Below are positions 44,814 to 63,317 of a stretch of 64,000 bases of DNA, piece by piece (within the stretch, counting starts at the first letter, position 1; every line of letters begins with the position of its first letter). The DNA lies in the NCBI GenBank assembly GCA_963821525.1, contig CAWGED010000008.1, forward strand, positions 96,001-160,000. Reading direction: 5' to 3'. Under the pieces are notes generated by a model. That model made no database searches. It was given only the letters and a program-made list of their open reading frames with translations, and was not told where the DNA came from. Position numbers and translations under genes: made by a program. The stretch is from an uncultured Gemmatimonadales bacterium. Its GTDB lineage: Bacteria; Gemmatimonadota; Gemmatimonadetes; Gemmatimonadales; GWC2-71-9.

Positions 44814-47488
44814 CTACTTCCCCGCCACCAGCCGCTCGAAGCGCGGGTTGCCCTTGAGCGGCGCGAAGTCGGGATCGATCCGGAGCCACCCGGGAGAGAG
44901 ATAGTACGGCATCTTGAGCAACGGCTCCAACAGGTCCAGTGCCTGCTCGGGTTCGCCCGCGAGCAGATAGATCCGCACCAGCTGGTGTTGGTTGTAGGCG
45001 CCAGCTGTAGGCGTCGACGCTGATCGGCAGGAGCGAGAGGCCCCGCTTTCCCTCCGCGATCGCCTCGGCCTTCCGACCGAGGTAAGCCAGGGCCAGGCCG
45101 TAGAGCACATGCTGCTGCGCATCGTCGGGCGCGGCCCGAAGATTCTTCTCGAAGCCAAGCCGCGCCGAGTCGGCATAGGCCCGCGCCTCGGCCATACGAC
45201 CACGGAGGTAATAGGTCTGCGCGTGAACGATGCCCCAGAGAGCCTGATCGTCATCGAAAGCACTCACCGGGAGTGCGAGAAGCTGCTGCTGCTGGGACTC
45301 GTCCAGTACCCAGAAGAGGTCCCAGTAGTTTCCGAAGAAGGCGAGCAGCGCCGCAGGTTCGACGGTCGCAAGGCGGCGTGCACGACACGCTCGGGCGCCG
45401 GCCAGGTCGCCCTGCGGCGAGCGCTACCTGGGCCTGCCCTCGATGATGCTGATGTTCGTGGGGGCAAGCGCGCCGGCCCGGTCCTGCGCCTCCTGCGCCT
45501 CGGGGTAGCGGCGCAGCCAGAGCAGGGTGTACCGCGGTACGCCGTGCGGTGTTGGCTGAGCGGGGGTCGAGGGCACCCGCCTTGGCAAGATGCTCGAAGC
45601 GCCGCGTCCCAACGACCGAGAGATTGCTCAACCAGCGCCGCCGCCACGAGCAGATCGACGTTGTTGGGTGCCAGCTTGAGGCCGGCTTCGGCAGCCGCGA
45701 GCGCCTGCCGGTTATCCAGCGCGCAGCCCCGTAGTAATCGCTCAAGCGCCAGCTGTCCCTCGGGCCGGTCTGGGCCGAGCGCGTGCGCGCGGTTCGCCGC
45801 ATCCTTGGCCTGGGCCGCCAGCTCGGGCGAGGGTGTGCTGTTGGTATACAGCCTCGCGTGCGCGGGACAGCTGGCTCCAGGCCGAGACGAAGCCCGAGTC
45901 GAGCGCTACCGCCTGCTCGTAGAAGCCGATGGCCCGCCGCAGGCTGGCCGGATCACTCACCGCCAGGCTCTGCGAGACGGCCTCACCTTTCAGGATAGGC
46001 ATCGTAGGCCGCGAGGTTCTCGGTCGGCTCTGGCCGCGAGCTCGTTGCGGGTACTGTCGCCCAAGGCCACATCGAGAGCACTCGCCACCTTGGTGGCGAT
46101 GTCGGCCTGCACCTGGAACACGTCGGTGAGCGACGCATCGAATGGCTGCTGCCACTTGGTCGTCGGCGCCCGTCGGGCCGACCTGGACCAGCTCGGGACT
46201 CACCCGGACGCGGCTGGCCCGCCGGCGCCCTTTTCCCAGCGCACGGTGCCGGTCAGCGAGATAGTCCGCGCCCAGTTCGCGGCGCGATCTGCTGGGGCGA
46301 CTTGGTGCTGTGCGCGGTACTCGTCCGAGCTGCCCGCGCGATGACCGCGAGCGCCGGCGACGTGGTGAGCTTCCCCCGCACCTCGTCGGTGATCCCGTCG
46401 GCGAAGTAGGCGTCGCGCCGAGTCGCCCAGGTTCTCGAACGGGCAGCACCGCGATGACGCCTCGGCCCGGCTCGCCTCGGCGCGTGCCCGTGCGCGTGCC
46501 GCCAGGCGAAGAGGAGACCGAGGCCAATGAGGATGCCGAGCATCGAGGGTGACGGCTGCGACCGGGACGGCGCGGGGTCGGGAGCGCGGTAGAGCTGGGG
46601 CGCTCGGATCCACTCGGCCGCGCGGGCGAGGCTGCCACCGTCGAGGCGCCGGTCAGGACCGGAAGTGCCTGGGCCAGCTGGCTCACCGTGCTGAACCGGT
46701 CGGCGGCCACCGGCGCCAGCGCCTTGCGGATCGCCTCGTCCACCCCGCGTCGGTACCGACGAGCGTATCGCCCGCACGCTCGGCGGCAGGCTCGGTGAGC
46801 CGCTTCACGATCAAGGCCTGGATCGTCGGCCCCGGTGAAAGGCGGCTCTCCGGCCAGCATTTCATAGAGCACCGCGGCGAGCGAATAGACGTCGGTCCGG
46901 GCATCGAGGTTGGGCTCGCCCGCCGCCTGCTCCGGACTCATGTACGCGGGGGTCCCGATCGCGAGGCCGGTCTCGGTCAGCCGCTCATCCGACGGCGCCC
47001 ACAGCCCGCGCGATGCCGAAGTCCGCGACCATGGTGTTGCCGTCGCGGGTGAGCAGGAGGTTTTCCGGCTTGATGTCGCGATGGACCACGCCATGGTCGT
47101 GGGCGTACTGGAGCCCCTGGGCTGCTTCCCGGGTGATCCGGAGCGCCTCCTCTACCGGGAGCTGCCGCTCCCGCCGCAGCCGGTCCCGCAGCGATTCGCC
47201 CTCGACGAACGGCATGGTGAACCAGAGCTGACCCGCCGCCTCGCCGGAATCGAGCACTGTGAGGATGTGGGGATGTTGCAGGCGGGCAGCGAGCTTGATC
47301 TCGCGCTGGAACCGCTCGGCGCCCAGGACCGCGGCCAGCTCGGGATGCAGCACCTTCAGGGCGACCGACCGGTCATGCTTCAGGTCGCGGGCCAGGTAGA
47401 CCGTGGCCATGCCCCCGCGCCCGAGCTCTCGCTCGAGGGCATAAGCATGAGACAGAGCCTCGGCGAGAGACTCCTTGGAAGGGGGCAT
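44814..47488 (-). CDS. Ser/Thr protein kinase with TolB-N/TPR C-terminus (kinase B; heavily frameshifted)
   Basis: [63 protein letters not shown] across more than 8 frame fragments. Confidence 0.85.
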
Positions 47489-47590
47489 TGAGATAAATGT
47501 ACGTCGTCTGACGTGGCCGTGCGACTCTGGGCGGCTGGTGCCCGGGATTCAGCTCACCGGAAGCGGCGGATGATCGCCATGATCAGCGAC
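47301..47590. repeat. ~290-bp direct repeat, copy B (kinase 5' end + leader + 3' end of the DUF2905 gene)
   Basis: Near-identical to 50409-50697. Confidence 0.95.
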
Positions 47591-50500
47591 TCATTTTGGA
47601 GGGTGAACGGCGTTCTCCGTGGACAGCCGACCCAGTGCCGCCTTCGCCTCGTCAACCAGGTACTGGTGGGAGGCGGGCGGCAGGTCATACCTCCTGAGGA
47701 ATTGCTGGTAGTGGTCGCGGGCCAGGTCGGTGCGACCCTGCGCTTCCTCGATACGTGCCAGTTCGTAGTACGCGAAGGGTGCGAACAACTGGGTGCGCGG
47801 GGATTCGTAGGAGGCCGGGATGTTGGCTTGGTGCCAGACCAACAGCTTCAAGGCGCGGCTGGTGTCGCCTTGCGCGAGCAGCAATCGTGATGCCGCCAGA
47901 TGGGTGATGGATCTGGCGTACGGGTCATGGGGACTGCTCATCTCGTCGTCCGTCGCTGACAGGTCGAGGGCCGCGAGCGACTCGGCAGCGGCTTGCCTCG
48001 CTCCCCGGAGTTCCAGCTCGAAGCCAGCGAGGGAGCGATCGAGGAAGGCTGCTTCGCGGGCCGCACTGCGCTGAACGCTCGCGCGCGCCTCCGCAAGTGC
48101 GCGCTGGTCGCGCCGGAGTACGGCGAGCATCCCGTCGGCCCAGGCGAGCTTCGCGAGTCCGTTCCTTGCGGAGGCCGAGTCGGGAGGAAGTCCAGCGAGG
48201 AACTTAACCGCCGCCGCCCTTCGCGCCGTTGCGCGCGCCGTGTCGAGCCCACCAAGCCAGGCGCCCGTTACCACAGTCTGGTAGATGACAAAGGCATGCG
48301 GTGGGCTGGCTGCAGCCCATCGGTCGGAGGCAACGAGGGCGGAGTCCCAGGCGCCACGTGCCGCCCACGCATTGGCCATGCCCTCCCAGGCCAAACCCGC
48401 GTATGAACCATGAGGATCGAGTGCCAGCAGGCGCCGGTTGAGCTCGATCTGGGCCGCCGGAAACCCATACCAATGGAGGAAAACGCTCGCCATGATGTGT
48501 TGGAGTCTGTTCTTCGCGCCCGCGATGGCCACAGCGAAGCTGTCGCGCAGTGGCACCGGAAGTTGCCCGCTGGCGGACAGCAGCAGGTGCTTGGGCAAGC
48601 TGGCATCATAGCCCAATTCCGCTGACGCCTTGGCGAAGTGTCCCAGCGCGGTCAGTGACCTGACTGCGAGCGCCGCCTGGGCTGAGTCATGGCCGAAGCT
48701 GGCATCGGCCAGGTGGTCCCACATGGGGACGAGCTTCGGGTTCGAGTCTACGGTCCGTTGCAACGCTGCCCGGACCTCGGCGTTGGTCGTGCCGATCACC
48801 GGCCCCCAGTGATGCAGGACGTCGGCGTACTTCCACCAGGCGGACCAGTCGTCGGGGAAGCGATCCGTAATGGCTCGGAACCGCGCCTGATACTCCGCTT
48901 CAGTCAGCGAGCCACCGTCTCTCTCCGCTTCGATGAGCAGCCGATCCCGCTCGCCGAAGGCCGAAAGGTGAGATTGGTATCCGCGCTGCAGGACGGAGTC
49001 CGGTCTGGCCTCGAGCACCCATCCCTGGGCCGAGTTGTATCGCCAGCCGGCAAGCCAGAAGCTTGAATCGGCCTTGATGGCGGTGGCGTAGGCCTCAATC
49101 GCCTCGGGCCAGCGCCCGGCAATAGTGAACTGCTCGCCATCGAGGAATGCGCGTAGTGATGCCACTGAACGCGTGGTGAGGTTCGCATAGCTGGGCGATG
49201 GCGGCTCGCCTCGGCGCCAGACCTGCCGCAGGATTGCCCAGGTGACCGAATCGGTGAGCACGCTGATGAAGTCCTGTGCCGCGACGACGGAGGCGCGTGC
49301 CAGCGGTTCGGCCGCGCCGCTGGTCGCAAGCAGCTTCAGGTCGAGCCGAATGTCCGGCCCCACCCGTACGATGTCTCCAACCACTACGCTCCCGGCGCCA
49401 AGGCCTTTGCCGAGCACCACGGCGTCGGTGGTGCCGCGGTCACTCGAGCCATCGACCTTCGCCAGGACCAGCCGCGGATCCGCCACCCGGATACCACCGA
49501 CACCGTCCAGGTTCGCGCTGATCGTGAGCACGAGGTCGCGTCCGAGGTGCACCAGTGCGGAGTCGGAAGTGCTGGGCAGAAACGGGAGCACCGCAATGAA
49601 CGAGGCGGAGGGCTCGACCTGTGGCCGGTGGCGCATGAAGCGCCAGCCGCCGACAAGACTGAGCGCCATTACCATGCCGGCGACGACGACCCATGCAAGC
49701 CGCCGCCTATCACGCACGCCTATCCCGGCCACCGACGCGGGGGCGGGTTGACTGAGCGCTTCCACAAACTGTGCTGCGGTGGCGAACCGATCCGCTGGCG
49801 ACCGGGCCAGCGCAGAGGCCAGCGCGCGGTCGACCGGCGCTGGCACCGTCTCCCGCACGGTGCGCACGGAAGGGACAGGCAGCGTCATCCGCTTGGCGAA
49901 GATGGCCTGCGCGGTCGGCCCGGTGTAGGGGGGCTCCCCCGCCAGCATCTCGTACAGCACGCAACCCAATGCGTAGAGATCGCTCCGGCCGTCGATCTCC
50001 CGCTCGGCCGTGGACTGCTCGGGGCTCATGTAGGCTGGTGTGCCGATGGCGAGGCCGGTCTCCGTGAGTCTTGCGCTGCCGGCGGCGTCGACTGCCCTCG
50101 CGATGCCGAAGTCGGCTACTCGCGCGTGACCGCCGGAGAGCAGGATGTTGTCCGGTTTGATGTCGCGGTGAATTACCCCCCGTGCATGCGCGTAGCCGAG
50201 CGCCTCGGCGACCTCGCGGGCGATCTGCAGCGCGTCCTCGACCGGCAGCTGCTTCTGCCGCGCCAGACGGTCGTGCAGTGATTCGCCCTCGACGAACGGC
50301 ATGACGTAGTACAGCAGCCGCCGGCCATTGTCGGTGGGAAGCTCCACCACGCCGCTGTCAAGGAGGGGCAGGATGTACGGATGGTCGAATCGGGCCGTGA
50401 TGGTGATTTCGCGCAGGAACCGCTCGGGGCCCAGTACCGCCGCCAGTTCAGGATGCAGCACCTTCAGGGCGACCGACCGGTCATGCTTCAGGTCGCGGGC

Positions 50501-50596
50501 CAGATAGACCGTGGCCATGCCCCCGCGCCCGAGCTCTCGCTCGAGCGCGTAAGTATGAGATAGAGCCTCGGCGAGAGACTCCTTGGGAAGGGGCAT
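47591..50596 (-). CDS. Ser/Thr protein kinase with TM and TPR-like C-terminus (kinase A)
   Basis: Intact [63 protein letters not shown]-like tail. Confidence 0.95.
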   Translation of the reverse strand: MPLPKESLAEALSHTYALERELGRGGMATVYLARDLKHDRSVALKVLHPELAAVLGPERFLREITITARFDHPYILPLLDSGVVELPTDNGRRLLYYVMPFVEGESLHDRLARQKQLPVEDALQIAREVAEALGYAHARGVIHRDIKPDNILLSGGHARVADFGIARAVDAAGSARLTETGLAIGTPAYMSPEQSTAEREIDGRSDLYALGCVLYEMLAGEPPYTGPTAQAIFAKRMTLPVPSVRTVRETVPAPVDRALASALARSPADRFATAAQFVEALSQPAPASVAGIGVRDRRRLAWVVVAGMVMALSLVGGWRFMRHRPQVEPSASFIAVLPFLPSTSDSALVHLGRDLVLTISANLDGVGGIRVADPRLVLAKVDGSSDRGTTDAVVLGKGLGAGSVVVGDIVRVGPDIRLDLKLLATSGAAEPLARASVVAAQDFISVLTDSVTWAILRQVWRRGEPPSPSYANLTTRSVASLRAFLDGEQFTIAGRWPEAIEAYATAIKADSSFWLAGWRYNSAQGWVLEARPDSVLQRGYQSHLSAFGERDRLLIEAERDGGSLTEAEYQARFRAITDRFPDDWSAWWKYADVLHHWGPVIGTTNAEVRAALQRTVDSNPKLVPMWDHLADASFGHDSAQAALAVRSLTALGHFAKASAELGYDASLPKHLLLSASGQLPVPLRDSFAVAIAGAKNRLQHIMASVFLHWYGFPAAQIELNRRLLALDPHGSYAGLAWEGMANAWAARGAWDSALVASDRWAAASPPHAFVIYQTVVTGAWLGGLDTARATARRAAAVKFLAGLPPDSASARNGLAKLAWADGMLAVLRRDQRALAEARASVQRSAAREAAFLDRSLAGFELELRGARQAAAESLAALDLSATDDEMSSPHDPYARSITHLAASRLLLAQGDTSRALKLLVWHQANIPASYESPRTQLFAPFAYYELARIEEAQGRTDLARDHYQQFLRRYDLPPASHQYLVDEAKAALGRLSTENAVHPPK

Positions 50597-52459: not shown

Positions 52460-52525
52460 TCGATCGTGGAGCCGCGCAGGAAGCATCTGCGCGGCTCCGT
52501 TCACACCGCCGCATCATGAGTACCC

Positions 52526-53476
52526 TCACTTCATTGCCTCACTTCGGAGCAGCTGCAGATTCATCTTTCCGAAGCTGAGATCATCGAGTTTGGCCATGCC
52601 CTGGCGCACGGGCCAGCGCTCGGACTTGCTGATCCAGAAGAAGAAGCCGAGTCCCGGATTGAATCGACCACGCCCGCGGTGAAGGCTGACCTTCCAACAG
52701 GTGAAGCGCCCAGCAGGGACCTCAATCACCTCCTCGCCATGAATCCGCAGGTTCACCCAGAACCGGACTGCCACACTGTCGTCGGACGGCCTGGTGATGG
52801 GGACGCTGATCGCTGAGTCGGCGGAAAGGTCTGCGGCCTGGAGCACCGCCAAGATAAGGGGCGGCAGCGGCTGCCATCGCTCCTCGACAGCAGGGGCGTG
52901 ATACGCCAGGAGCTCGAGACCATCCCGCGTCACCCAAGTCGAGTCGGTAAAGAACGGCGGATTGTCCTTGACCTGCTTGCCGGCCAGCAGCAACCAAGCC
53001 GGCGCCCCCGCGTATTCCGAGGGCTCGACCGAATAGACGAACAGGGTGTCCCCCGGGTGCGTGGCGGCGTCCGGTTCTGCGCTGTAGGTCCACCGTCCGG
53101 GGCGCAGCCTGAGGCCCTTGGCTGCTTCCATAGTCGCAAAACTCGGGGAGCCGGAGACTTGTGCCGCTAATGGTTCTGCTGCAAAGACGGATGGCGCAGC
53201 GAGCGTACGTGTCCCGACGGTGCCCGAAGGACGAGTAGCCAGCCGCGGTGCGATGAAGAACAGCAGCAGGGCCGCCGCGACCGCGACCGCCGACACGCGG
53301 GCGATCCATCGAATCGTCATCCGACCTCGGCCTGCGGCCGGACCTGACATTATGACCCGCTCGCCGCGCCGCCGCCGCTCAAGGATCAGCTCCAGCTGCC
53401 GCTGAGATGGGACGGGAGCCTCCAGCAGTCCCGCGACATGGCGGATCCGGCGTTCGAGCTCCTGATCAGTCAGCAT
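52526..53476 (-). CDS. Putative anti-sigma / membrane-anchored protein
   Basis: Coupled downstream of an ECF sigma; single TM AVAVAAALLLFF; C-terminal E.IEVPAGRFTCWKV motif. Confidence 0.65.
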   Translation of the reverse strand: MLTDQELERRIRHVAGLLEAPVPSQRQLELILERRRRGERVIMSGPAAGRGRMTIRWIARVSAVAVAAALLLFFIAPRLATRPSGTVGTRTLAAPSVFAAEPLAAQVSGSPSFATMEAAKGLRLRPGRWTYSAEPDAATHPGDTLFVYSVEPSEYAGAPAWLLLAGKQVKDNPPFFTDSTWVTRDGLELLAYHAPAVEERWQPLPPLILAVLQAADLSADSAISVPITRPSDDSVAVRFWVNLRIHGEEVIEVPAGRFTCWKVSLHRGRGRFNPGLGFFFWISKSERWPVRQGMAKLDDLSFGKMNLQLLRSEAMK

Positions 53477-54027
53477 GATGCCTCCAATACCTGGCGGAGC
53501 CGCTGGAGCGCGCGGTGGAAGCGCACCTCCGAACTGTTGCGGCGGATGCCCAGCAGTTCCGCGATTTCATCGTGTGAGTAGCCCTCGATGGCCTTGAGAA
53601 CCACCACGACTCGCTGGTCCTCAGGTAACTGCATCAGGGCGAGTGCCAGATCCGCCTGGTCTCCGGAGCATCCGGCCGGGAACGCAGAAAGCGTCGATGC
53701 CTCGTGGAAATCGGCTTCCCGCCGCCGCCTTTCCGCCCGGAGCCGCATCAGGACGAGGCGAACCAGGATCCGCCTGAGCCAGGCAGGGAACTGTCCAGAC
53801 TCCCTGTAGTGTCCCAGTGCTTCGGGTAGCCCGACGAACAGATCCTGGACGACATCCTCGGCCTCGCTCGCGCTCCCGAGCAGCCGGGCGGCGAGCGTCA
53901 ACATCGCAGCTGCGTGACGGTGGTATACCGCACTCAAGGCGTCCGGATCTCGCGCCCGGACACGGGCCACTAGGCCAGCGTCGCTTGGTGGTTCAGTCGA
54001 ATGAACGATCGAAGCGGGGAGACCCAT
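53470..54027 (-). CDS. ECF sigma-70 family RNA polymerase sigma factor
   Basis: EAEDVVQDLF, FPAWLRRI, EGYSHDEIAELLG. Confidence 0.92.
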   Translation of the reverse strand: MGLPASIVHSTEPPSDAGLVARVRARDPDALSAVYHRHAAAMLTLAARLLGSASEAEDVVQDLFVGLPEALGHYRESGQFPAWLRRILVRLVLMRLRAERRRREADFHEASTLSAFPAGCSGDQADLALALMQLPEDQRVVVVLKAIEGYSHDEIAELLGIRRNSSEVRFHRALQRLRQVLEASC

Positions 54028-54168
54028 GCAGACATAATGCCGCACGTGGGCGGATTCTTACAACTGGCTGGCTGACGGACTGAGCGGACGAATACCCGTG
54101 CTTCCCAGCTCGCGCCCAAACCATGTAACGATCCGCGAGGGGGCGGACTGCAAGGTCGGTCATTTGGC

Positions 54169-54340
54169 TCAGCGCCTCGGTTCGCCGATGAGCCGCTGCA
54201 GTCCGGCGTGCGGCCACGTAAGGTTGCAGCTCAGGATCGGCCTGCCGCCAGGTGTCCACCACGCGCTGGAACAGATGATCCCAAGCCCCTGCTCACCCAA
54301 CCGTCGGCGAGCCGCGCCCGCTCGAGGACGGCGCTGACGA
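54169..54340 (-). pseudogene. Degenerate C-terminal remnant of a TPR-tailed Ser/Thr kinase-type gene
   Basis: Across frames reads VLERARLA..LGE...QRVVDTWRQADPELQPYVA..AGLQRLIGEPRR*; no 5' part present. Confidence 0.6.
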
Positions 54341-54452
54341 AAAAGCTGCAATGCCTACAGTTGAATTCTGAATTCTACCTCGAATAGTCCAGCTATCGAA
54401 TAATCCAGCCTAGGCGGCCAACCCCGATCACGGGGTGAACCGCTTCGACCTT

Positions 54453-54554
54453 CCTGTCTCTTATCCCTCCCCCCTGCTTGACGGGATAAGAGACAGGGCC
54501 ACAGAGGGAGTTCACTGCCCCCTGGTGTATCGACTATTACCGAAGCACCGTGGG
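54453..54554 (+). repeat. att-like palindromic site, copy 1
   Basis: cctgtctcttatccc-N8-gcttgac-gggataagagacagg (perfect 15-bp IR), then gagggagttcactgccc...actattaccga. Confidence 0.85.
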
Positions 54555-54660
54555 CACGTCGCTCGGACAGTCCATAGAGTAGAAGTCGCCGTCAACCGGA
54601 ACCGTGAGTATGTCCTTCTGGGGAGACGGGGCGGAAGGGTTTGAGGATCGCTCAGCGCGC

Positions 54661-55437
54661 CTACTTCAGGTCGATTAGCTCGTCACGCTCACCTCCTTGG
54701 CGGGTAGCGACCTCCAACACATTTCCGATCCCCGGAGCGTAGAACTTATGCGACCGGTCCCCTGGCTCGATGGGCGTCCATTCCGTAGTCTCGAGACAGT
54801 TGGTGAACTTGCCGAACGGTACCGTCACCGTCTCCGTCAGGCGGATCACCTTCCCCATGTCCTCCACCACTCCGGGCGAATTTTCCTGCTGGACAATGTC
54901 GCCCACATGGGGATCGGCCAGCATGATGATCCCAGCCTTGGCGCTGTTCTTTCCCGCCTCCCAGGAGCCCTCATCCGTCAAGAACTTGCCGTGATCGAAC
55001 GTCTTGGTATCCTCGCCGAGGTACCAGACGTTCCCGTCCTTGTCCGGGGCAAACCAATCGAAGGTGTCTTCCGACAGGGAACCGTCCTCGATGAACACTT
55101 GATCATGGACGACAATGGCACTGACTCCGAGAATCGTCTTGGTCTGGTGCGTGACCTTAACCACGTTCAGCTCCGGCCCTTCCTTCTTGAATTCGCTCCG
55201 GTACGTGTACCTGGTGCCAGGGTGAAGAGGGAAGTACAGGTTATCCTTTGGGGTCACGAAGTTGGCAGCATGGAAGGGAATGGTGATGACCTTGGAACTG
55301 ACGCTGGGTACGGCTTGCGGATTAGCGGTTGAGGCCGTGAGAACTTGACTGGGGTCGTCCGCCGCCCCGCAGCCTGCTAACCCGAGCACGCCGGCGAGGG
55401 CATACAGCCACAGCCGACTGATTTGAGGCGCCGTCAT
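54661..55437 (-). CDS. Conserved hypothetical lipoprotein
   Basis: AGGAGG RBS, lipobox LAGC, DNLYFPLHPG, DKDGNVWYLGE, KFYAPGIG. Confidence 0.85.
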   Translation of the reverse strand: MTAPQISRLWLYALAGVLGLAGCGAADDPSQVLTASTANPQAVPSVSSKVITIPFHAANFVTPKDNLYFPLHPGTRYTYRSEFKKEGPELNVVKVTHQTKTILGVSAIVVHDQVFIEDGSLSEDTFDWFAPDKDGNVWYLGEDTKTFDHGKFLTDEGSWEAGKNSAKAGIIMLADPHVGDIVQQENSPGVVEDMGKVIRLTETVTVPFGKFTNCLETTEWTPIEPGDRSHKFYAPGIGNVLEVATRQGGERDELIDLK

Positions 55438-55634
55438 CGTTGATCCTCCTGGAGATTGGAGTTCGGGGAACTCGCGGCACCTGTCTCCTCCTGTCGAGCG
55501 CAGCACCGCACCCCATGAGGAGCCCACGAGGGGACCCTGTTGTGACAGCCGAAGGCGACTCCCTAAGCCTGTCCGGAGAGAGTGTGCCAACATGAAGCTC
55601 TGAACGGGTCAGGGATCGGGAATGCGGGATGTGA

Positions 55635-55725
55635 TCTTATCCCTTCCGCCGCTTGACGGGATAAGAGCAAGGCCGCAGAGGGAGTCACTGCCCGCTGGGG
55701 CCGAACTATTACCGAGGACCCGTGG
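55635..55725 (+). repeat. att-like palindromic site, copy 2
   Basis: tcttatccc-N7-gcttgac-gggataaga, then gagggagtcactgccc...actattaccga. Confidence 0.85.
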
Positions 55726-55798
55726 CCCCATGTCTCGCGGGGTGTGCCAGCAAGAAAGACTCTTGTGACGACCTGAGACAGTGAACTGCGGAGCGGCT

Positions 55799-55877
55799 CC
55801 TGTCTCTTATCCCCATCCCGTTATCCCCATCCCCTGCTTGACCGGATAAGAGATAGGGGCCTAGAAGGAGTTCCACT
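55799..55877 (+). repeat. att-like palindromic site, copy 3
   Basis: cctgtctcttatccc (internal ttatccccatccc duplication) gcttgac-cggataagagatagg, then gaaggagttccact. Confidence 0.85.
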
Positions 55878-55915
55878 CGCTCCCCCCACCGGACGAAGGC
55901 CGAAATGGCATAGGG

Positions 55916-55943
55916 TTGACAAATCAATATTCGTTGATATTAT
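55916..55943 (+). promoter_or_regulatory. ars promoter with ArsR operator
   Basis: TTGACA N16 TATTAT enclosing the inverted repeat ATCAA-N6-TTGAT, just before the arsR ATG. Confidence 0.75.
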
Positions 55944-55949
55944 CAGCCC

Positions 55950-56276
55950 ATGGCAACGGCCCAGCAGGAACTCACTTCGGTCGCGCGGGTGTTCCACGCG
56001 CTCTCAGACGAAACCCGCGTCGCCCTCGTCCGGCGCTTGCGGAGCGGGGAGCACTGCGTGTGCGATCTCATGGATCACCTGGACGCGGCCCAGTCACGGC
56101 TGAGCTTTCACCTCAAGGTGCTGCGTGACGCCGGAATCGTGGATTGCCGGCGCGAGGGACGCTGGGCGTACTACTGGCTGCGGCCGGAGGCCTTCGACGA
56201 TCTCGGCGACGCCGTGAAGGGACTCGCCCCGACACCTGGAGCCCGCGCGACCGCGGCGGCGCGGTGCTGCGACTGA
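55950..56276 (+). CDS. arsR: ArsR/SmtB family regulator
   Basis: FHALSDETR, EHCVCDL, QSRLSFHLKVL; C-terminal CC. Confidence 0.93.
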   Translation: MATAQQELTSVARVFHALSDETRVALVRRLRSGEHCVCDLMDHLDAAQSRLSFHLKVLRDAGIVDCRREGRWAYYWLRPEAFDDLGDAVKGLAPTPGARATAAARCCD

Positions 56277-56331
56277 TTGGCTTTTTCTCACGTTGAATAT
56301 ATCAACCATTTTTGGTGAATGCGAGGCTGAC

Positions 56332-57249
56332 ATGACGAGCAGGTCCGATATCCCGAGCGCGGCGAGTGCGCTGACGGAGACAGTGAAGGCGAAGTACGGC
56401 GAAGCCGCCAAGCGCGTTCTCGCGGGGCAGGACGCGAGTTGTTGCGGGCCAGTCAGTTGTGGTTGCGGCTCCGCGGCAGCGAACGGCATCAAGGACCCGA
56501 TCACCTCGGACCTCTACGGCGCCGACCAGACCGGTGTGCTTCCGGCCGACGCCGTCCTGGCCTCGCTGGGGTGCGGCAATCCGACCGCCCTCATCGAACT
56601 CCACGACGGCGAGGTGGTACTGGATCTCGGCTCCGGCGGCGGGATCGATGTTCTCCTCTCCGCCCGTCGCGTCGGTCCCACCGGCAAGGCCTACGGGCTC
56701 GACATGACCGAGGAGATGCTGGCTCTGGCCCGCGCCAACGCGGCAAAGGCCGGTGCCACGAACGTGGAGTTCCTCAAGGGGAATATCGAGCAGATCCCGC
56801 TCCCCGATGCGAGCGTGGATGTGATCATCTCGAACTGCGTCATCAACCTGTCGGCGGACAAGCGGCGAGTGCTGGGGGAAGCCTTCCGCGTCCTCAAGCC
56901 GGGCGGTCGATTCGCGGTCTCCGATGTGGTGGTGCGGGGTGAAATCCCAGCGGCGGTTCGGAGGAATATGGAACTCTGGGTGGGCTGCGTTGCGGGTGCC
57001 CTGGAAGAGCAGGAGTTCCTGGACCTGCTTGGCGCCGCCGGGTTCGAGTCGGCGTCAATCGAGCCGACCCGGGTCTACGAGTTCGAGGACGCCCGTGCCT
57101 TCCTCGGGGCGGCGGGAGAAGAGCTGGAGGTGCTCGCCCGCGACGTGAGCGGACGCGTCATGGGCGCGTTCGTGCGCGCCACTAAGCCTCGCTCGGCGGC
57201 TCTCCCCGTCGCAGCCGGCGCGTGCTGCGGTTCGGATTGCTGCACCTGA
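56332..57249 (+). CDS. arsM: Arsenite S-adenosylmethyltransferase
   Basis: SLGCGNP, VLDLGSGGGID, IISNCVINL, WVGCVAGA; Cys pairs at both ends. Confidence 0.93.
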   Translation: MTSRSDIPSAASALTETVKAKYGEAAKRVLAGQDASCCGPVSCGCGSAAANGIKDPITSDLYGADQTGVLPADAVLASLGCGNPTALIELHDGEVVLDLGSGGGIDVLLSARRVGPTGKAYGLDMTEEMLALARANAAKAGATNVEFLKGNIEQIPLPDASVDVIISNCVINLSADKRRVLGEAFRVLKPGGRFAVSDVVVRGEIPAAVRRNMELWVGCVAGALEEQEFLDLLGAAGFESASIEPTRVYEFEDARAFLGAAGEELEVLARDVSGRVMGAFVRATKPRSAALPVAAGACCGSDCCT

Positions 57250-57277
57250 CCCGGGCCTCGATTCACCGGGCCCATCC

Positions 57278-57751
57278 ATGGTCGCGACGCCACTCCACCT
57301 GAACGGCCGGTCCGTCGCACTGCGACCGGCCACCGCGTCGGATCTCCCGACGGTCCTGCGGCTGCTCGTGGACCTGAAGCTTCCGACCGCCGGTGTCGAC
57401 GACTCGTGGTCGGAGTTCACGGTCGCCGAGGCGGATGGAGCGCTAGTCGGCCTCGCTGGCGTCGAGCGGTATGCCGAGGGCGTCCTGCTGCGGTCGGTGG
57501 CGGTCCACCCCGCCTGGCGCAGCTCGGGCCTCGGTCGAGCGCTGGTTGAAGGGGTCCTCGATCGGGCAGCCCGTGCCGGCAGTCGCGACGCGTACCTGCT
57601 CACCACCACGGCGGAACACTATTTCCCACGCCTGGGGTTCCGCGCCATCGCCCGTGCAGATGTGCCAACGTCGGTTCAACAGTCGGTGGAGTTCCGTGAG
57701 GCCTGCCCGGGCAGCGCCGTCGTGATGCGCCGTTCGCTTATTGCTCCCTGA
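57278..57751 (+). CDS. arsN2: Arsenic resistance GNAT N-acetyltransferase (ArsN2-like)
   Basis: LLRSVAV..AWRSSGLG, YLLTTTAEHYF, EFREACP; located in the ars operon. Confidence 0.85.
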   Translation: MVATPLHLNGRSVALRPATASDLPTVLRLLVDLKLPTAGVDDSWSEFTVAEADGALVGLAGVERYAEGVLLRSVAVHPAWRSSGLGRALVEGVLDRAARAGSRDAYLLTTTAEHYFPRLGFRAIARADVPTSVQQSVEFREACPGSAVVMRRSLIAP

Positions 57752-57784
57752 CCGCTCCCTTCCCTGCACCAAGGACTGACCGTC

Positions 57785-58309
57785 ATGACGAGCCTCCCGG
57801 CCGATCGCCCCCTCCGCGTGCTCTTCGTGTGCACCGGCAACAGCGCCCGCAGTCAGATGGCCCAGACGGTGCTCAATCGGAAAGGGCGCGGACGATTCGT
57901 GGCTGAGAGTGCCGGCTCACAGCCGGCCGAACGCGTCAACCCCCTGGCTATCAGCACCCTGGAGCACCATGGCTTCTTCTGGACCGGTCACGCACCACAA
58001 GGCCTCGACGTCGTGATCGAGCAACCCTGGGACTTCGTGATCACGGTGTGCGATCGCGCGAAGGAAACCTGTCCCATCTTCCCCGGGCAGCCGGTGATCG
58101 CCCATTGGGGGATGCCCGACCCGGCCGAGGCGACCGGCACGGAGGAAGAGCGGCAACGCGTGTTCGATGACACGCTGCTCCTCATCAGCCGGCGCCTGGA
58201 TCTCTTCCTCGCGCTGCCCATGGCGAAGCTGGAGAAGCTCGCCCTCCAACACCGAGTCAACGAGATCGGCGGCGCGGGCGCTGCTCCACTCGCCACGCGT
58301 GATGCCTGA
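57785..58309 (+). CDS. arsC: Arsenate reductase (LMW-PTPase/thioredoxin type)
   Basis: LFVCTGNSARSQMA, VITVCD..KETCP, HWGMPDP. Confidence 0.92.
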   Translation: MTSLPADRPLRVLFVCTGNSARSQMAQTVLNRKGRGRFVAESAGSQPAERVNPLAISTLEHHGFFWTGHAPQGLDVVIEQPWDFVITVCDRAKETCPIFPGQPVIAHWGMPDPAEATGTEEERQRVFDDTLLLISRRLDLFLALPMAKLEKLALQHRVNEIGGAGAAPLATRDA

Positions 58310-58369
58310 CGGCCGGCTGCGCACCCGCGCTCTGGACAGGCACCCACCCCATTGGAGCCTCTTCCCAAC

Positions 58370-59470
58370 ATGACTGCCCCTGCTGGTGACGCGCCAATCC
58401 TTATTCGCCTGTCCACCCTCGACCGCTTTCTGCCGCTCTGGATCTTCGCGGCCATGGGCCTGGGGCTCCTGCTGGGACGGGCCTACCCGGACCTGGGGGC
58501 AGCCCTGGACCGCGTGCAGCTGGCGGGCGTCTCAGTGCCGATCGCGATCGGACTGCTGTGGATGATGTATCCGGTGCTTGCGAAGGTGCGCTACGAGGCC
58601 ATCGGCGAGCATGCACGCGATACGAAACTGCTGGGCACGTCGCTGACGCTCAACTGGATCCTCGGGCCACTGGTCATGCTGGGGCTCGCATGGCTGTTCC
58701 TCCCCGACCTGCCCCACTACCGCAATGGGCTCGTCCTCATCGGGCTGGCCCGATGTATCGCCATGGTACTGGTGTGGAACGCCCTGGCCTGCGGCTCGGC
58801 GGAGTTGGCTGCTGTCCTCGTGGCCCTCAACTCTGTCTTTCAGATTCTGACCTACTCGGTGCTGGGCTGGCTGTACCTGACCGTGGTGCCCACGTGGTTC
58901 GGAGCCGATACGGCCGTACTCGATGTGTCGATGGGGCAGATCGCCAGGAGTGTCGGGATCTTCCTTGGCGTGCCACTCATAGCCGGATACGTCACGCGGC
59001 GCCTCCTGGTCGCCCGACGAGGAGCTGTCTGGTATGACGGCGTGTTTATTCCCCGGATCGGCCCCACCGCGCTGATCGGCCTGCTCTACACCATCGTGCT
59101 GATGTTCGCGATGCAGGGGCATCGCATTGTCGAGCTGCCGTTCGATGTCCTGCGCATCGCGCTCCCGCTTCTGGCCTACTTTGCCCTCATGTTCGGTCTC
59201 GCCTTCTGGCTCGCGCGGCAGCTGGGGTTTGCCTACGAGGCCACGGCCTCGCTCGCCTTCACGGCCGCTGGCAACAACTTCGAATTGGCCATCGCGGTTG
59301 CGGTCGCGACCTTCGGGATCGGGTCTGGCGAAGCCCTCGCCGCGGTGGTGGGCCCGCTGATCGAGGTGCCCGCGCTGGTGGGTCTGGTGTACGTGTCACT
59401 CTGGGCTCAACGACGCTACTTCCCGGCTGGCCCCGCGCGTTCACGTCCACCCATCTGTCATTCCAGCTGA
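58370..59470 (+). CDS. acr3: ACR3 family arsenite efflux transporter
   Basis: LDRFLPLWI, MMYPVLAK, GLARCIAMV, GNNFELAIAVA, GPLIEVP. Confidence 0.95.
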   Translation: MTAPAGDAPILIRLSTLDRFLPLWIFAAMGLGLLLGRAYPDLGAALDRVQLAGVSVPIAIGLLWMMYPVLAKVRYEAIGEHARDTKLLGTSLTLNWILGPLVMLGLAWLFLPDLPHYRNGLVLIGLARCIAMVLVWNALACGSAELAAVLVALNSVFQILTYSVLGWLYLTVVPTWFGADTAVLDVSMGQIARSVGIFLGVPLIAGYVTRRLLVARRGAVWYDGVFIPRIGPTALIGLLYTIVLMFAMQGHRIVELPFDVLRIALPLLAYFALMFGLAFWLARQLGFAYEATASLAFTAAGNNFELAIAVAVATFGIGSGEALAAVVGPLIEVPALVGLVYVSLWAQRRYFPAGPARSRPPICHSS

Positions 59471-59514
59471 CACGCCAGTAATCCACACCAGGCTCCACTG
59501 GGGCGAAGCAAGCC

Positions 59515-59543
59515 CCTGTCTCTTATCCCAGCCCCCGCTTGAC
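59515..59543 (+). repeat. att-like site, copy 4 (left half only; overlaps the -35 of the downstream promoter)
   Basis: cctgtctcttatccc-N7-gcttgac, not followed by the gggataagag arm. Confidence 0.8.
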
Positions 59544-59594
59544 GCCCTCCTTCCCCTTCCCCATATTGCCGGAGGAAACCGAACAAACACCGAA
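59539..59594 (+). promoter_or_regulatory. Sigma70 promoter with a downstream direct-repeat operator (candidate LexA box)
   Basis: TTGACG (59539) N17 CATATT (59562); ACCGAA-caaac-ACCGAA at 59578-59594. Confidence 0.65.
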
Positions 59595-59609: not shown

Positions 59610-59768
59610 ATGTCTCCCTCGACCCCTCCACCCCCCACCAAGACCCCACCCAGGCCAAGCACTCTAACCTACTACAGGATAAGAGTTTGCCCTGAGTGCT
59701 CCGGCCCGGTCATCCGCAACTCGGGCTGCATCACGTGTGCGCAATGTGGGTGGGGGAAATGCGGGTAG
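59610..59768 (+). CDS. Small 52-aa zinc-ribbon protein (not in the ORF track)
   Basis: Hand translation MSPSTPPPPTKTPPRPSTLTYYRIRVCPECSGPVIRNSGCITCAQCGWGKCG*; first gene after the promoter. Confidence 0.8.
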   Translation: MSPSTPPPPTKTPPRPSTLTYYRIRVCPECSGPVIRNSGCITCAQCGWGKCG

Positions 59769-59849
59769 GAGGGCGGACAGGTGGGATGGCGGTAGGGCGG
59801 GAAGGCGGTCGGGGCGAGGCAGGACGGAACAGGGCGGCCGGGGACAAAG

Positions 59850-59942
59850 GGCGGAATGGCGGAATGGCGGAATGGCGGAATGGCGGAATGGCGGAATGGC
59901 GGAATGGCGGAATGGCGGAATGGCGGAATGGCGGAATGGCGG
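59850..59942. repeat. Octamer array (GGCGGAAT)11, flanked by a GC-rich inverted pair
   Basis: Eleven perfect copies at 59850-59937; ggcggtagggcgggaaggcggtcggg (~59788) pairs with cccgaccgccatcccgccctaccgcc (~59978-60003). Confidence 0.95.
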
Positions 59943-60178
59943 GCCGAAGGTAAGCAGTCAGCGAAGCGGATCTCCCGCCCGACCGCCATCCCGCCCTACC
60001 GCCCAACAGGCGACGCAAGACCCACGACCCAGGACCAGACCACGACCACCGACCACCGACGATGTCCCCACCGACCAGGATGAGCCGACGCCTAATGAAA
60101 CTGCGACGAGCCGAGGCTCACGACCCAGGACCCGAGACCATCGACTATCGACCACCGACCATCGACCACGAACCCACC

Positions 60179-60649
60179 ATGCCCGACCTCGCGACCTCCA
60201 ACATCACCGGCCAACTGGTGGCGGTGCTTCGCGAAGCTATCGAGGGACCGCAGCACAGCTGGACCTATTTCACCGACAACCAGCCGGGAACTGGACTGTT
60301 CGGAACCATCGGACCGCTGAGTCCGGCCGACGTCTCGCGGCCCCAGGGGAAAAGTGGGACCACCATCGCCGGCCATGTCCATCACCTCGCCTTCAGTCTC
60401 CACGCCTCGGCGGCCTGGATCCGCGGCGAGCGGCGGCGGTGGAACTGGGACGAGAGCTGGCAGGTCCGCACCGTCGGCAGCAACGAATGGGCTGAGCTGC
60501 GCAACCGGCTGCGCCAGTCCTACGGCGAGCTGACCCAGGCCATCGAGCAGCACGCTCTCGAGAGCGAAGAAGCAATGGGCGGAGCCATCGGTGCGGTAGC
60601 GCATGCGGCATATCACTTGGCAGTGATTCGGCAGAAAGCGACGGGGTGA
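60179..60649 (+). CDS. DinB-like family protein
   Basis: TIAGHVHHL, WDESW, VAHAAYHLAVIRQ. Confidence 0.82.
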   Translation: MPDLATSNITGQLVAVLREAIEGPQHSWTYFTDNQPGTGLFGTIGPLSPADVSRPQGKSGTTIAGHVHHLAFSLHASAAWIRGERRRWNWDESWQVRTVGSNEWAELRNRLRQSYGELTQAIEQHALESEEAMGGAIGAVAHAAYHLAVIRQKATG

Positions 60650-60708
60650 GGGATGGCGGAATGGCGGAATGGCGGAAGGGCGGGACGGCGGAATGGCGGA
60701 ATGGCGGA
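60650..60708. repeat. Degenerate (GGCGGAAT)n tract
   Basis: ggatggcggaatggcggaatggcggaagggcgggacggcggaatggcggaatggcgg immediately after the stop codon. Confidence 0.9.
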
Positions 60709-60773
60709 CCGACAAATCAGCGGAGTCAGACGTGCAGAGCAAGACGGGATGGCGGACTCAAGACTCACGACCC

Positions 60774-61921
60774 ATGACCACCGACCGTCGACCACCGACA
60801 ACCGGTCCCCAGTTGCCGTTGCTAACCGTCCGCCGAGTCCGCCGAGCCGCCGATCCGCCCTGCCCGTCCTCGATACTAGAGCCGCTCGGGGAAGCACGTT
60901 TCACAAAGTGCCGGTCAAGACGGTCCTCAATTCACCGGCCACGACCGGCATGGGCTTCTGGTCGCTCAATCCCTACGTCGGATGCGAGTTCGGGTGCTCG
61001 CTACTGCTATGCGAGGGAGACGCATAAGTGGACAGTCGAGCGGCTGGGGACACGAGTCAGGAATTGCCGATTGATAATTGCCGATTGCCGATTGCACCCG
61101 CTCCATCACACCAATCAGCAATCGACAATCAGCAATCAGCAATCCCCCGCCGAGGCATTCGAGCACCGCATTTCGTCAAAGCCGACGCCGCCGACGTGCT
61201 GCGCCGCACCCTGGATCCCGTGAAGCTGGCGGGGGCGTCCCTGGTGATCGGCACCGCGACCGATCCCTATCAGCCCGCCGAACGGAAGTTCAAGCTCACC
61301 CGGAGCATTCTCGAGGCGCTGCTCGGCTGGCGGGGCCTCTCGCTTGGGCTCATCACCAAGTCACCGCTGGTCACCCGCGATCTCGATCTGCTGCAGCGGC
61401 TGAGCGAGCGGCACGAGGTGAGCGTCAACATTTCCCTCGCGTCGCTCAACGCGCCGTTGTTGCGCCGGCTGGAGCGCCGCTCTCCGGCGCCGCATGCCCG
61501 GATCCGCGCCCTCAAGACTCTGATCGACGGTGGCATCCACACCGGGCTGCTCATCGCCCCGATCCTGCCCGGCATCACCGACGACCGGGCCGGGCTGGCG
61601 ACGCTCATGCGCGCCGCCAAGGCGGCCGGCGCCAGGTACGCGGTAGGCCAGCCACTCCGCCTGGGCCCGGCGATCGTGCCGCAGTTCATGCCGGTGCTGG
61701 AGCAGGAATTCCCCGATCTCGTGGAGCGCTACCGGCAACACTACGGCCACGGCAATTACGTAAGGGCCGAGTACCAGAAAGCCCTCATGCACCGGTTACA
61801 CCAGCTGCAGGAGGAGTTTGGCTTTCCGGTCGCAGAAAGTCGGAGGCGCAGAGAGCAGCTGGAGGGAAGACAGCCCCGATGGATGAAGGAGGAGTGGCAG
61901 GCGACGCTGCTATTAGGCTAG
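60774..61921 (+). CDS. Radical SAM protein, Rv2578c/SplB-like DNA-repair family (2-3 frameshifts)
   Basis: SLNPYVGCEFGC|YCYA (CxxxCxxC split by a frameshift), IGTATDPYQPAE, ITKSPLVTRDLD, APILPGITD. Confidence 0.9.
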
Positions 61922-62021
61922 ACGGTGAGACGGTAGAACGTGTGAACGGGTATTTCTGATCTCCAGTTATCCCGTCTCCCGTTCTCCGTCTCCTCGGTAC
62001 TGGTCACCGGTACTTACCTCA

Positions 62022-63317
62022 ATGCTCCGATCCGTCCTCTTCATCGACCCCCCCGCCTTCTGCACCGCTGTCGAAGGCCTCGTCGCACCCGCGCTTCGGG
62101 AGCGGCCGGTTGCGGTGGCGGCGCCGGGAGCCGATCGCGCCACTATCCTGGCGCTCTCCGCCGAGGCGAAGGCGGCGGGCATCGCGCGCGGGATGCCGGT
62201 GGCAAAGGCCAAGAAGCTCTGTCCCGATCTCATCCTGCGCGCCCCAAACCCTCGGCTCTATGCCCGGGCCTCGCGCGCGCTGTTCGAGATCCTGCGCCGC
62301 TATGCCCCGGTGATCGAGCCCAAGGGATACGGCCATGCCTATCTCGACATGACCGGCACCAGCAGGCTGTTCGGTCCGGCGGTGGATGTAGCGCGGAGGA
62401 TCCAGCGGGAATCGAACCAGCGCATCGGACTGGATCTCGCGGTCGGCGCAGCGGCTAACAAACTGGTGAGCCGCACCGCCTCTGAAGTGGTGAAGGGTTT
62501 GTTTCTCGAACCGCCGAACCGCCGTTCCGCCTTTCCGCCACTCCTCGACGTCCTCGCCGGCAGCGAGGCTCCCTTCCTGGCACCCCATCCCACCGGGTTG
62601 CTTCCCGATCTCCCCGAGGAGATGCGGGAACGGCTCGACGACTACCAGCTCGAGCTGATCGGTGAAGTCGCGGCACTGGAGCAGCAGCAGCTCTACTCGG
62701 TGTTCGGCACTCCTGGTCGTGTGTTGCACCAGCACGCTCGCGGCATCGATCCTCGACCAGTGATGGCTCCCGAAGTAAAGGCGGAGTTCCGCGCCGCCCA
62801 CACGCTCGCCAGCGATACCAATGATCTGGGCCTGATCCACCCGCTGCTCCGACACCTGACTGAGCGCCTGGGACAGCGGCTCAGGCAACGACAGCTGGTG
62901 AGCCGGCGGCTTACCCTGCAGCTCGCCTACACCGATTACGCCACCGCGAAGCGGAGCATATCCCTCCCGCTCGCTGCCCTCGACGTGGAGCTGTGGGATG
63001 CGGCTCGTCGGGCGTTCGCGCTGGCCAACTCCCGCACCGTCGCGATCCGTGCCTTGGGGATCAGTGTGGACCGGCTGGTGGAGGCGGACCTGCAGCTGGA
63101 GTTTTGGGAGACGGGAGACGGGAGACGGGAGACGGGAGAATCGGACCGGCGGACCGGCGGACCGGCGGACCGCCGCACTTCTCACGTCTCACTTCTCACG
63201 CATTTCGCCGAACCGGCGAACCGTCGAACCGCCGAACCTCTCCAGTCCGCCATCGACCAGATCCGCGCCCGCTGGGGCAACCGGGGGATCGGGATGGCTC
63301 CGATGCTGAGCCGGTGA
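62022..63317 (+). CDS. Y-family DNA polymerase-like protein (DinB/ImuB-like, catalytic acids degenerate)
   Basis: IDPPAFCTAVE, RERPVAV, EAKAAGIARGMP, GAAANKLVS, ARGIDPRPV, clamp motif QLEFW, AIDQIRARWG; EPKGYGHAYLD replaces SIDEAYLD. Confidence 0.9.
   Translation: MLRSVLFIDPPAFCTAVEGLVAPALRERPVAVAAPGADRATILALSAEAKAAGIARGMPVAKAKKLCPDLILRAPNPRLYARASRALFEILRRYAPVIEPKGYGHAYLDMTGTSRLFGPAVDVARRIQRESNQRIGLDLAVGAAANKLVSRTASEVVKGLFLEPPNRRSAFPPLLDVLAGSEAPFLAPHPTGLLPDLPEEMRERLDDYQLELIGEVAALEQQQLYSVFGTPGRVLHQHARGIDPRPVMAPEVKAEFRAAHTLASDTNDLGLIHPLLRHLTERLGQRLRQRQLVSRRLTLQLAYTDYATAKRSISLPLAALDVELWDAARRAFALANSRTVAIRALGISVDRLVEADLQLEFWETGDGRRETGESDRRTGGPADRRTSHVSLLTHFAEPANRRTAEPLQSAIDQIRARWGNRGIGMAPMLSR

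Follow-up and report, generated by a model that had tools for sequence, protein, structure and literature searches.

Within a 64,000-nucleotide stretch of contig CAWGED010000008.1 from an uncultured Gemmatimonadales bacterium (the window), four similar sites in one orientation separate small groups of genes, and the last of them runs into the promoter of a predicted DNA repair operon. What are these sites, and which enzyme could have set the units between them in a row? The original prediction took them for att-like sites of a cassette array resembling those of integrons. We find that the joints are not att sites. Each consists, in this order, of the right terminal inverted repeat (TIR) of one unit, a 14–15-bp target copy ending in TTGAC, and the left TIR of the next unit. 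The array spans ~52521–59543 and contains four units. The joints are very probably of casposon origin. The units in the window are casposon-derived and, as no Cas1 or PolB match was found in the genome that holds them, they are not casposons in the strict sense.

Anatomy of the joints and the empty site

The pattern TCTTATCCC-N5-25-GCTTGAC matches four times in the window (54459, 55635, 55805 and 59521) and never in any of 100 shuffles. On both strands of the 4.33-Mb genome that holds the window (G000, 81% complete), these four matches are the only ones, so that the recurring cores reported before stand at their positions and are confined to this locus rather than scattered. The perfect 15-bp inverted pair of copy 1 (54453–54467 / 54483–54497), the shared tails, the internal duplication of copy 3 and the missing right arm of copy 4 are all present as first described, while the arm sequence of copy 3 had to be corrected and begins CGGATAAG. 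The empty unit between copies does exist and measures 156 bp instead of ~140 bp. The lipoprotein-like gene and the ars operon are indeed cargo, and one further unit at the far left (~52535–54467) had been overlooked. The arms are longer than noted earlier. They include a second, outer motif in the layout GTGAAC-N12 ... N12-GTTCAC, and an arm reads GGGATAAGAGAYAG, then 12 free bases, then RGTTCAC.

The features of the array are as follows, with cargo families assigned by Pfam, target copies read from the sequence, and TIR ends scored on a position weight matrix (PWM) built from 105 ends outside the window.

52521..52534, + strand: fifth target copy, decayed (TACCCTCACTTCAT), which marks the left edge of the array; the expected left TIR does not follow
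52526..54045, − strand: cargo of unit 1, an ECF sigma factor (53470–54045) and a DUF3108 protein (52526–53476)
54435..54467, − strand: complete right TIR of unit 1, GTGAAC-N12-CTGTCTCTTATCCC on the + strand, 41.8 bits
54468..54482, + strand: target copy 1, 15 nt (14 nt in L153 and in 4/4 read sets)
54483..55643, + strand: unit 2, 1161 bp, with a complete left TIR (54483–54515, 43.9 bits)
54661..55437, − strand: lipoprotein-like open reading frame (ORF) of unit 2, with a 47% paralog on contig C5
55644..55657, + strand: target copy 2, 14 nt
55658..55813, + strand: unit 3, 156 bp, without a gene and similar to a miniature inverted-repeat transposable element, with a complete right TIR (55781–55813, 40.9 bits)
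55814..55842, + strand: target copy 3, 29 nt, a 15-mer after a 14-nt near-duplication of TIR tip and half target
55843..59529, + strand: unit 4, 3687 bp, with a left TIR (first G changed to C) that holds a CCGGA-N6-CCGAA box
59530..59543, + strand: target copy 4, AGCCCCCGCTTGAC, whose last five bases belong to the −35 of the host promoter
59539..59594, + strand: host promoter, −35 TTGACG, 17-bp spacer, −10 CATATT (59562–59567) and a likely LexA box CCGAA-N6-CCGAA (59579–59594)
59610..63317, + strand: downstream operon with a 52-aa zinc-ribbon ORF (59610–59768), DinB, a radical SAM protein and a Y-family polymerase

Three window ends score 41–44 bits and one scores 30 bits; three are decayed and one, the left TIR of unit 1, is lost. 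The left TIR of unit 2 holds a decayed CCGAA box, and its right TIR has shrunk to TCTTATCCC (55635–55643, 9 bp). The left TIR of unit 3 shows two 1-nt deletions and a CCGAA-N6-CCGAG box, and the right TIR of unit 4 (59516–59529) has no outer motif. At the left boundary, 10 of the 14 letters of 52521–52534 agree by eye with the copy in genome G003, which has the 14-mer and a left TIR at the orthologous place. Between the flanks of the window units, 2–4 of 14 letters differ in a gapless comparison, all within the 5' eight, and no unit here is bounded by an exact target duplication. Unit 4 encodes, by Pfam, arsR, an arsM-like methyltransferase, a GNAT protein, an arsC-type (LMWPc) and an acr3-type (SBF) protein, behind a promoter of its own (TTGACA-16-TATTAT, 55916–55943). 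No Pfam or PHROG match was obtained for the lipoprotein-like ORF of unit 2. The near-tandem duplication in copy 3 covers 55807–55834 and may be the footprint of an off-register integration or the result of slippage.

In G002, a genome of the same genus, window position 52512 is joined to 59533 across the single 14-mer CATCCCCGCTTGAC, with neither arm nor TIR; the 15-mer of copy 3 is one letter longer. Two other genomes of the genus, G001 and G004, have no TIR ahead of the promoter. Because these three genomes carry the 14-mer only, CCTGTCTCTTATCCC is the right TIR of an element, the 14-mer is the target, and the arm is inserted DNA. The ancestral target proposed at copy 4 is thus the 14-mer including TTGAC and not the whole core, and the modules thought to share one conserved end have in fact two inverted ends each. 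Serial insertion at one target, regenerated each time, is supported.

Cargo also varies between relatives, as had been anticipated. At the same place, G003, the fourth genome of the genus, has its own stack of four units: one with ars genes, one that is tiny, one of 4.3 kb and one of 6.5 kb with restriction-modification (R-M)-like genes. The 6.5-kb unit has both TIRs, exact 14-bp repeat flanks and no core-gene match. The cargo of unit 1 is missing at this locus in G002 and G003, and it is present in the metagenome contig L153, again bounded by this right end. There, and likewise in contigs of runs X1, X3 and X6, a different left end and an ars variant follow the right end of unit 1, and a contig of run X3 joins the right end of the lipoprotein unit straight to the promoter. 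These read data are contigs (Logan) of 4 of the 24 listed runs, at likeness 88, and none spans the whole stretch. The shared ars unit is last in the stack of G000 and first in that of G003, so the array did not grow strictly at one end.

This spot also holds variable cargo of other kinds, with no TIR, in G001 and G004 (L036:1012–2378, and L038 of G004 upstream of the promoter), namely genes for an ECF sigma factor and a small membrane protein, and R-M and nucleotidyltransferase genes. The site is therefore a hot spot reached by other routes too.

Complete casposons with the same ends

The TIR pattern was found in 26 stretches among genome contigs, all 26 titled Gemmatimonadota or Gemmatimonadales, in 69 stretches (66 loci) among metagenome contigs, and in none among viral contigs. 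Its 14-base core occurs in 24 of 401 family genomes; a backwards control gave four matches among the rows listed, and a few of the 24 are probably chance. Facing TIR tips stand 14 bp apart in 18 of 27 distinct junctions and 15 bp apart in three.

Complete elements with these ends are present in G588 (19.8 kb) and G061 (17.0 kb), encoding Cas1, a ~1000-aa PolB-like protein, and HNH-like and HTH proteins. Three further full elements have related TIRs (G229, G382 and G058). All five are flanked by an exact 14-bp duplication, with no differences between the flanking 14-mers. The duplication around the G061 element is CCCGCTTTCTTGAC, and this element sits at the promoter of the same operon, from zinc ribbon to Y-family polymerase (PolY), that follows copy 4. 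In L139 and L076, cas1 lies inside the right TIR at the zinc-ribbon/PolY promoter as well, and TIR-target-TIR joints adjoin a casposase in G382, G209 and L121. These elements point to a Cas1 casposase as the enzyme, and not to a tyrosine recombinase of the integron or Xer type.

The Cas1 protein matches PF01867 (4e-41), and its catalytic positions E, H, D and E are invariant in 85 of 85 aligned homologs. Its PDB matches are an archaeal CRISPR Cas1 (4n06, 6e-21) and then the M. mazei casposase (6opm, 1e-15). With the G061 protein (459 aa) as query, matches were obtained in 7 of 401 class genomes, one of which groups with CRISPR Cas1; the G588 gene is split by frameshifts in its assembly. In a tree of 19 rows, three of them under half filled, 13 casposase-like rows separate from CRISPR Cas1 (88/89, open). 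The three casposases at the zinc-ribbon promoter fall together (91/100, not starred), and so do two at the GGTTGAAG target (96/90). No CRISPR-like repeats were found in the five full-element regions, and no Cas2 match among 41 ORFs scanned from full elements. The PolB-like ORFs of 926–1062 aa show exonuclease motifs DxE[ST] and N..FD and polymerase motifs DFxSMYP and DTDS. The HNH-like and HTH ORFs are common to full elements, with no tblastn match in G382 and a weak PHROG HNH match (0.003). Cargo of 4–13 kb lies on both sides of the core. That of G061 includes an IS3-type element, type I R-M genes, and genes for caspase-domain and ThsB-like TIR-domain proteins (L108:11000–12223; L109:1820–7406).

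Described casposon TIRs start GGGATA and are flanked by 14–15-bp duplications (PMC4046053 supplement 1), the M. mazei casposon has the end 5'-TATATCCC and uses a 14-bp target (PMC6977970), and tandem casposons share one target copy (PMC4779613). The closest known counterparts are the family 3 casposons AceAut-C1, NitAL212-C1 and StrAlb-C1 (PMC4046053), which resemble our full elements in their bacterial hosts, their solo Cas1, PolB-like, HNH-like and HTH proteins, TIRs starting GGG(A/G)TA or GGGGGAG, and 14–15-bp duplications. The AceAut-C1 duplication begins CGTCAA, the reverse complement of TTGACG. This likeness is one of gene content, TIRs and duplications. Published members are single and autonomous and are described only as intergenic (PMC4779613), whereas the units here lack the core, carry host-type cargo (ars operon, ECF sigma factor, lipoprotein), stand up to four deep and occupy the −35 of a likely LexA-controlled promoter. 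The empty site, the TIRs, the 14-bp spacing, and the full elements with Cas1 and a PolB-like protein between the same ends, one of them at the same promoter with an exact duplication, together support a casposon origin of the joints.

Origin and movement of the core-less units

How did units without core genes come to be stacked? In the account that we favor, the array was built by the Cas1 casposase of a full casposon not found in this assembly, and some enzyme-less units moved whole in trans; we judge its chances to be about even. As judged from the biochemistry of the M. mazei and A. boonei enzymes, the casposase would join ...TATCCC-3' ends to both strands 14 bp apart, and fill-in would duplicate the target. 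The duplication would keep the −35 intact and leave fresh target copies for the next insertion. Internal deletions may then strip cas1 and polB while TIRs and cargo stay. In the most speculative step, a helper casposon in the cell would allow core-less units to be excised and re-inserted, sometimes with their own target copy. Movement in trans is favored by the 6.5-kb unit of G003, by strain-variable unit sets, by ars genes beside differing ends and targets, and by an engineered mini-casposon that moved in trans and formed a tandem in vivo in M. mazei (PMC10359463). The ars genes lie beside these TIRs in five assemblies (G000, G003, L153, L161 and G016), with different end spacers and at two targets, the second in G016, a genome of another genus. 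Kinases, TPR proteins or single unknown genes make up the cargo of further core-less units.

We notice an asymmetry in the flanks of core-less units. When the flanking 14-mers of 11 such units were compared, 24 of 88 positions differed in the 5' eight bases and 0 of 66 in the 3' six (Fisher p 4e-7, a value overstated by the relatedness of the units and by C-run slippage, which inflates gapless counts). Three lost-end units (13/24 and 5/18 differences) and the inverted L058, L125 and L169 were left out of this count. Drift after duplication is expected in both halves, so simple drift does not account for the asymmetry, and two explanations remain. Units may take their former target with them, in which case a difference confined to the 5' half of the flanks would be explained; such carry-over has been proposed with caution for M. 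mazei (PMC10359463). Alternatively, homologous recombination in the conserved 3' half and the TIR may allow strains to swap parts of their arrays.

Several observations weigh against casposase-driven movement of the units or against parts of the casposon account. In G000, cas1, polB, HNH and HTH genes were unmatched by family search, tblastn and our own profiles in an assembly of 81% completeness, and neither Cas1 nor PolB families matched in G001–G004 and G016, with one of these searches run without a positive control. Cas1 remnants persist in four TIR loci (L071, L076, L159 and L162), which means that internal deletion or decay in place does happen. A core-less unit would also lie between exact target duplicates if a recent internal deletion had removed its core genes. 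In no genome did an identical unit appear at two sites. Two arsR types and two acr3 types are combined in mosaic fashion in the ars units, a pattern indicative of homologous recombination between strains. The lost, shortened and motif-less ends of units 1, 2 and 4 belong here too. Finally, the identity of the PolB-like protein rests on weak profiles: Pfam DNA_pol_B_2 in 5/5 elements, with a best value of 5e-7 and below cut-off for G061, PHROG 1907 (DNA polymerase) at 1.4e-5, a PDB profile match at E 0.2, and no PDB match by phmmer.

These points bring forward the strongest competing explanation, somewhat less probable than the favored one: full casposons lost their cores in place, core-less units were never moved by a casposase, and all change came from host recombination between the ~80-bp joints or between strains. 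Besides the Cas1 remnants, the decayed window TIRs and the mosaic ars units, it draws on the two-sided cargo of full casposons (type I R-M genes in G061, as in the unit of G003), on the X3 contig, which could have arisen by a deletion from copy 2 to copy 4, and on the published decay of solo TIRs in M. mazei (PMC4779613). It fits poorly with very small two-ended units, such as one of 1.09 kb in L117 with both ends intact and the 156-bp window unit with one intact end, and with TIR motifs that are conserved while the 12-nt spacer inside them is free. The flank asymmetry speaks against it as well where simple drift is meant, though recombination between strains could produce it.

Beyond movement in trans, a wider reading may be entertained, which we regard as doubtful. 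Soil Gemmatimonadota would possess a gene-cassette system run by Cas1, in which the casposase captures, excises and re-stacks adaptive genes as TIR-bounded cassettes carrying their own target, at an SOS −35. Equally doubtful is the proposal that its cargo (arsenic resistance, restriction-modification, sigma factors) travels at times set by DNA damage through the LexA-like box in the left ends. If true, such a system would resemble integrons while using the chemistry of CRISPR, and it would serve as a living model of the repeat-insert-repeat stage through which CRISPR arrays are proposed to have arisen.

The first suggestion for this locus, a tyrosine recombinase acting on att sites with a GCTTGAC overlap and one site per cassette, as in integrons or pdif modules, now seems highly improbable. 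Co-oriented sites, variable cargo and the tendency of the 5' half of the 14-mer to stay with the left-hand unit would suit it. Nevertheless, empty sites lack the arms, exact 14-bp duplications flank 5/5 full elements, and the arms stand 14–15 bp apart where tyrosine recombinases use 6–8 bp. A scan of 41 of the 55 ORFs of four full elements (the others being core genes scanned earlier or overlapping frames) gave no tyrosine or serine recombinase, and BLAST clustering of ORFs from 26 TIR loci, inspected by eye, gave no shared recombinase and Cas1 only as a 3-locus cluster. The sites lack attC ends (RYYYAAC...GTTRRRY) and do not match the 28-bp XerC-6 bp-XerD consensus of dif, as their TTAT/ATAA face the opposite way; the earlier statement that they are neither attC nor dif therefore holds. 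No integrase appeared among the genes scanned at the locus or in full elements, a scan that did not extend to IntI across the genome. What survives of the likeness is a growing array with a regenerated target, and 5' halves that differ as if the site were borne by the unit.

Slightly less probable still are ends of an IS110/IS1111-type or DDE insertion sequence (IS) family with miniature derivatives. Members of such families have sub-terminal inverted repeats around a short core and insert in tandem, and an IS3-type transposase does occur inside the G061 element. It is present in one of four full elements scanned and lies within the TIRs, against Cas1 in 5/5, and the GGGATA start and 14-bp duplication fit casposons. 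Ordinary repeats without a role in mobility (repetitive extragenic palindromic elements, terminators, transcription factor sites) would account for palindromic, intergenic sites, and are practically ruled out by the empty site, the full elements, the single genomic locus, the exact edges of presence and absence among strains and an Rfam scan of 40000–64000 (E up to 1), in which none of 6 weak matches reached the gathering score.

A Tn5 mosaic-end or library-adapter artefact was also considered and rejected. The likeness to the Tn5 mosaic end is limited to CTGTCTCTTAT, one match with 3 mismatches was found in the genome, and independently made assemblies contain the sites as well. One more TIR-like match, at C8:253484 (23 bits), lies without a partner in a GAATTGCAG-type repeat tract and is taken as chance.

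Other loci show unusual arrangements. In L128:2698–2838, four TIR-like ends and repeated target motifs are crowded into 140 bp as a very compact joint array. L058:5620–10033, L125:1779–2577 and L169:750–1548 each have two right-type ends with inverted target copies, a layout that suggests inversion or recombination between ends. Ser/Thr kinase-TPR genes lie beside or inside many TIR-bounded units (window 45742–50596, L051, L052, L057, L061, L063 and L076), which may reflect only the abundance of such genes in the phylum.

The target promoter and related systems

The TTGAC of copy 4 is part of the −35 of a likely SOS promoter, TTGACG-17-CATATT at 59539–59567, as the original prediction had held. 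In G000, the motif CCGAA-N6-CCGAA occurs at 16 sites, five of them ahead of lexA (twice), recA, a UvrB-like gene and the zinc-ribbon operon. As a direct repeat, at C3:59330, C3:59361, C19:29584, C19:63752, C8:228628 and window 59579–59594, it is the probable LexA operator of Gemmatimonadales; a literature search found no described Gemmatimonadota LexA motif. Against this part of the account stands the lack of genome-wide enrichment of the N6 spacing, with 16 sites versus 14–40 at other spacings. The unannotated 52-aa ORF (59610–59768, +) is a CxxC...CxxC zinc ribbon with a weak PHROG match to ribonucleotide reductase and heads a mutagenesis operon. It is present in 29 of 101 relatives, 28 of which have the LexA-like box at its promoter; three of the 29 promoters carry a TIR (G000, G003 and G441). 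Left ends often hold a CCGAA-type box too (25 of 30, against 1 of 27 right ends, with at most two mismatches allowed), which could link the element to the SOS response.

The 135 distinct end contexts comprise 46 tandem joints, 27 followed by the GGTTGAAG motif, 22 with a CCGAA/TTCGG box, 20 left joints and 20 others. Two of the 22 boxed contexts (L122 and L137) proved misassigned on inspection, and most precede the zinc-ribbon operon. The 27 form a second target class of the same TIR family, a 14-mer ending TTGAG or TTGAT and then GGTTGGTTGAAGGG, with sites in L052, L058, L066, L118, L119, L125, G382, G588 and others; in G588 a lipoprotein-like gene is split. YTTGAS hexamers number 5691 in G000 and TIRs occur at one locus only, so the choice of site needs more than the hexamer. 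A target-site duplication logo is given no weight here, its sites having been chosen for TTGAS. In addition, TIR-core matches at L201:1514 and L210:1514 (G551) lie behind a near-identical 14-mer by a tRNA-like end and are possibly a third target class.

Integron and pdif arrays share with this locus a growing row of co-oriented sites that separate interchangeable cargo, and differ in that here attC or dif matches and a tyrosine recombinase are lacking and each unit has two inverted ends and a duplicated target. Among other systems with a preferred site, the Mutator-like elements TnGBS and ISLre2 tie insertion to sigma-70 promoters. Tn7 and TnGBS use DDE transposases, make 5- or 9-bp duplications and insert upstream of the −35, whereas here the −35 itself is duplicated. 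Tn7 islands resemble this locus in their pile-up at one safe site (PMC4779613). Tandems, solo TIRs and the mini-casposon of Methanosarcina share with our array the common target copy, a 14-bp duplication conserved at one end only and the ...TATCCC-3' tip (PMC4779613, PMC10359463, PMC6977970), as well as core-less constructs that integrate in trans and form tandems, and the proposed carry-over of an old target (PMC10359463). They differ in belonging to archaeal family 2 with tRNA-Leu or intergenic targets that have a CGCA motif, and the portions of the same three papers used here contain no description of natural cargo-only units. CRISPR arrays likewise have a repeat-insert-repeat order made by predicted Cas1 chemistry, with the duplicated target as repeat (PMC6452270, PMC6977970). 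The array differs from them in its TIR-bounded gene units of 0.16–6.7 kb instead of short spacers, in its 14-bp repeat and in the lack of any Cas2 match or CRISPR repeat found.

A literature search, with the supplementary target tables of PMC4779613 outside its reach, returned no such array, no −35 target class and no Gemmatimonadota casposon. In the portions consulted, 'non-autonomous' refers to other transposons (PMC6452270, PMC4779613), and 'promoter' does not occur in a 2023 review (PMC9939771). In our reading, the locus is a probable casposon-derived cargo array at a likely SOS promoter. The CRISPR adaptation module is proposed to stem from casposons, and CRISPR repeats may go back to TIRs or to the duplicated target (PMC6452270). 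With a natural bacterial array, an empty site, a full element at the same site and strain variation at hand, three questions can be put to a direct test: do casposases mobilize passenger units in nature, do the units take the previous target along, and how does a casposase select a promoter −35? Casposons would also have to be counted among possible carriers of metal resistance in soil. The system further provides a compact bacterial integrase whose defined 14-bp site is used without damage to the host promoter.

Between the genes of the downstream operon, GGCGGAAT and related 7–8-bp tandem repeats (59853–59947, 60650–60712 and 63107–63172) vary among relatives. The radical SAM gene (60669–61921) and one kinase gene (44285–47488) are split between frames, which probably reflects errors of long-read assembly.

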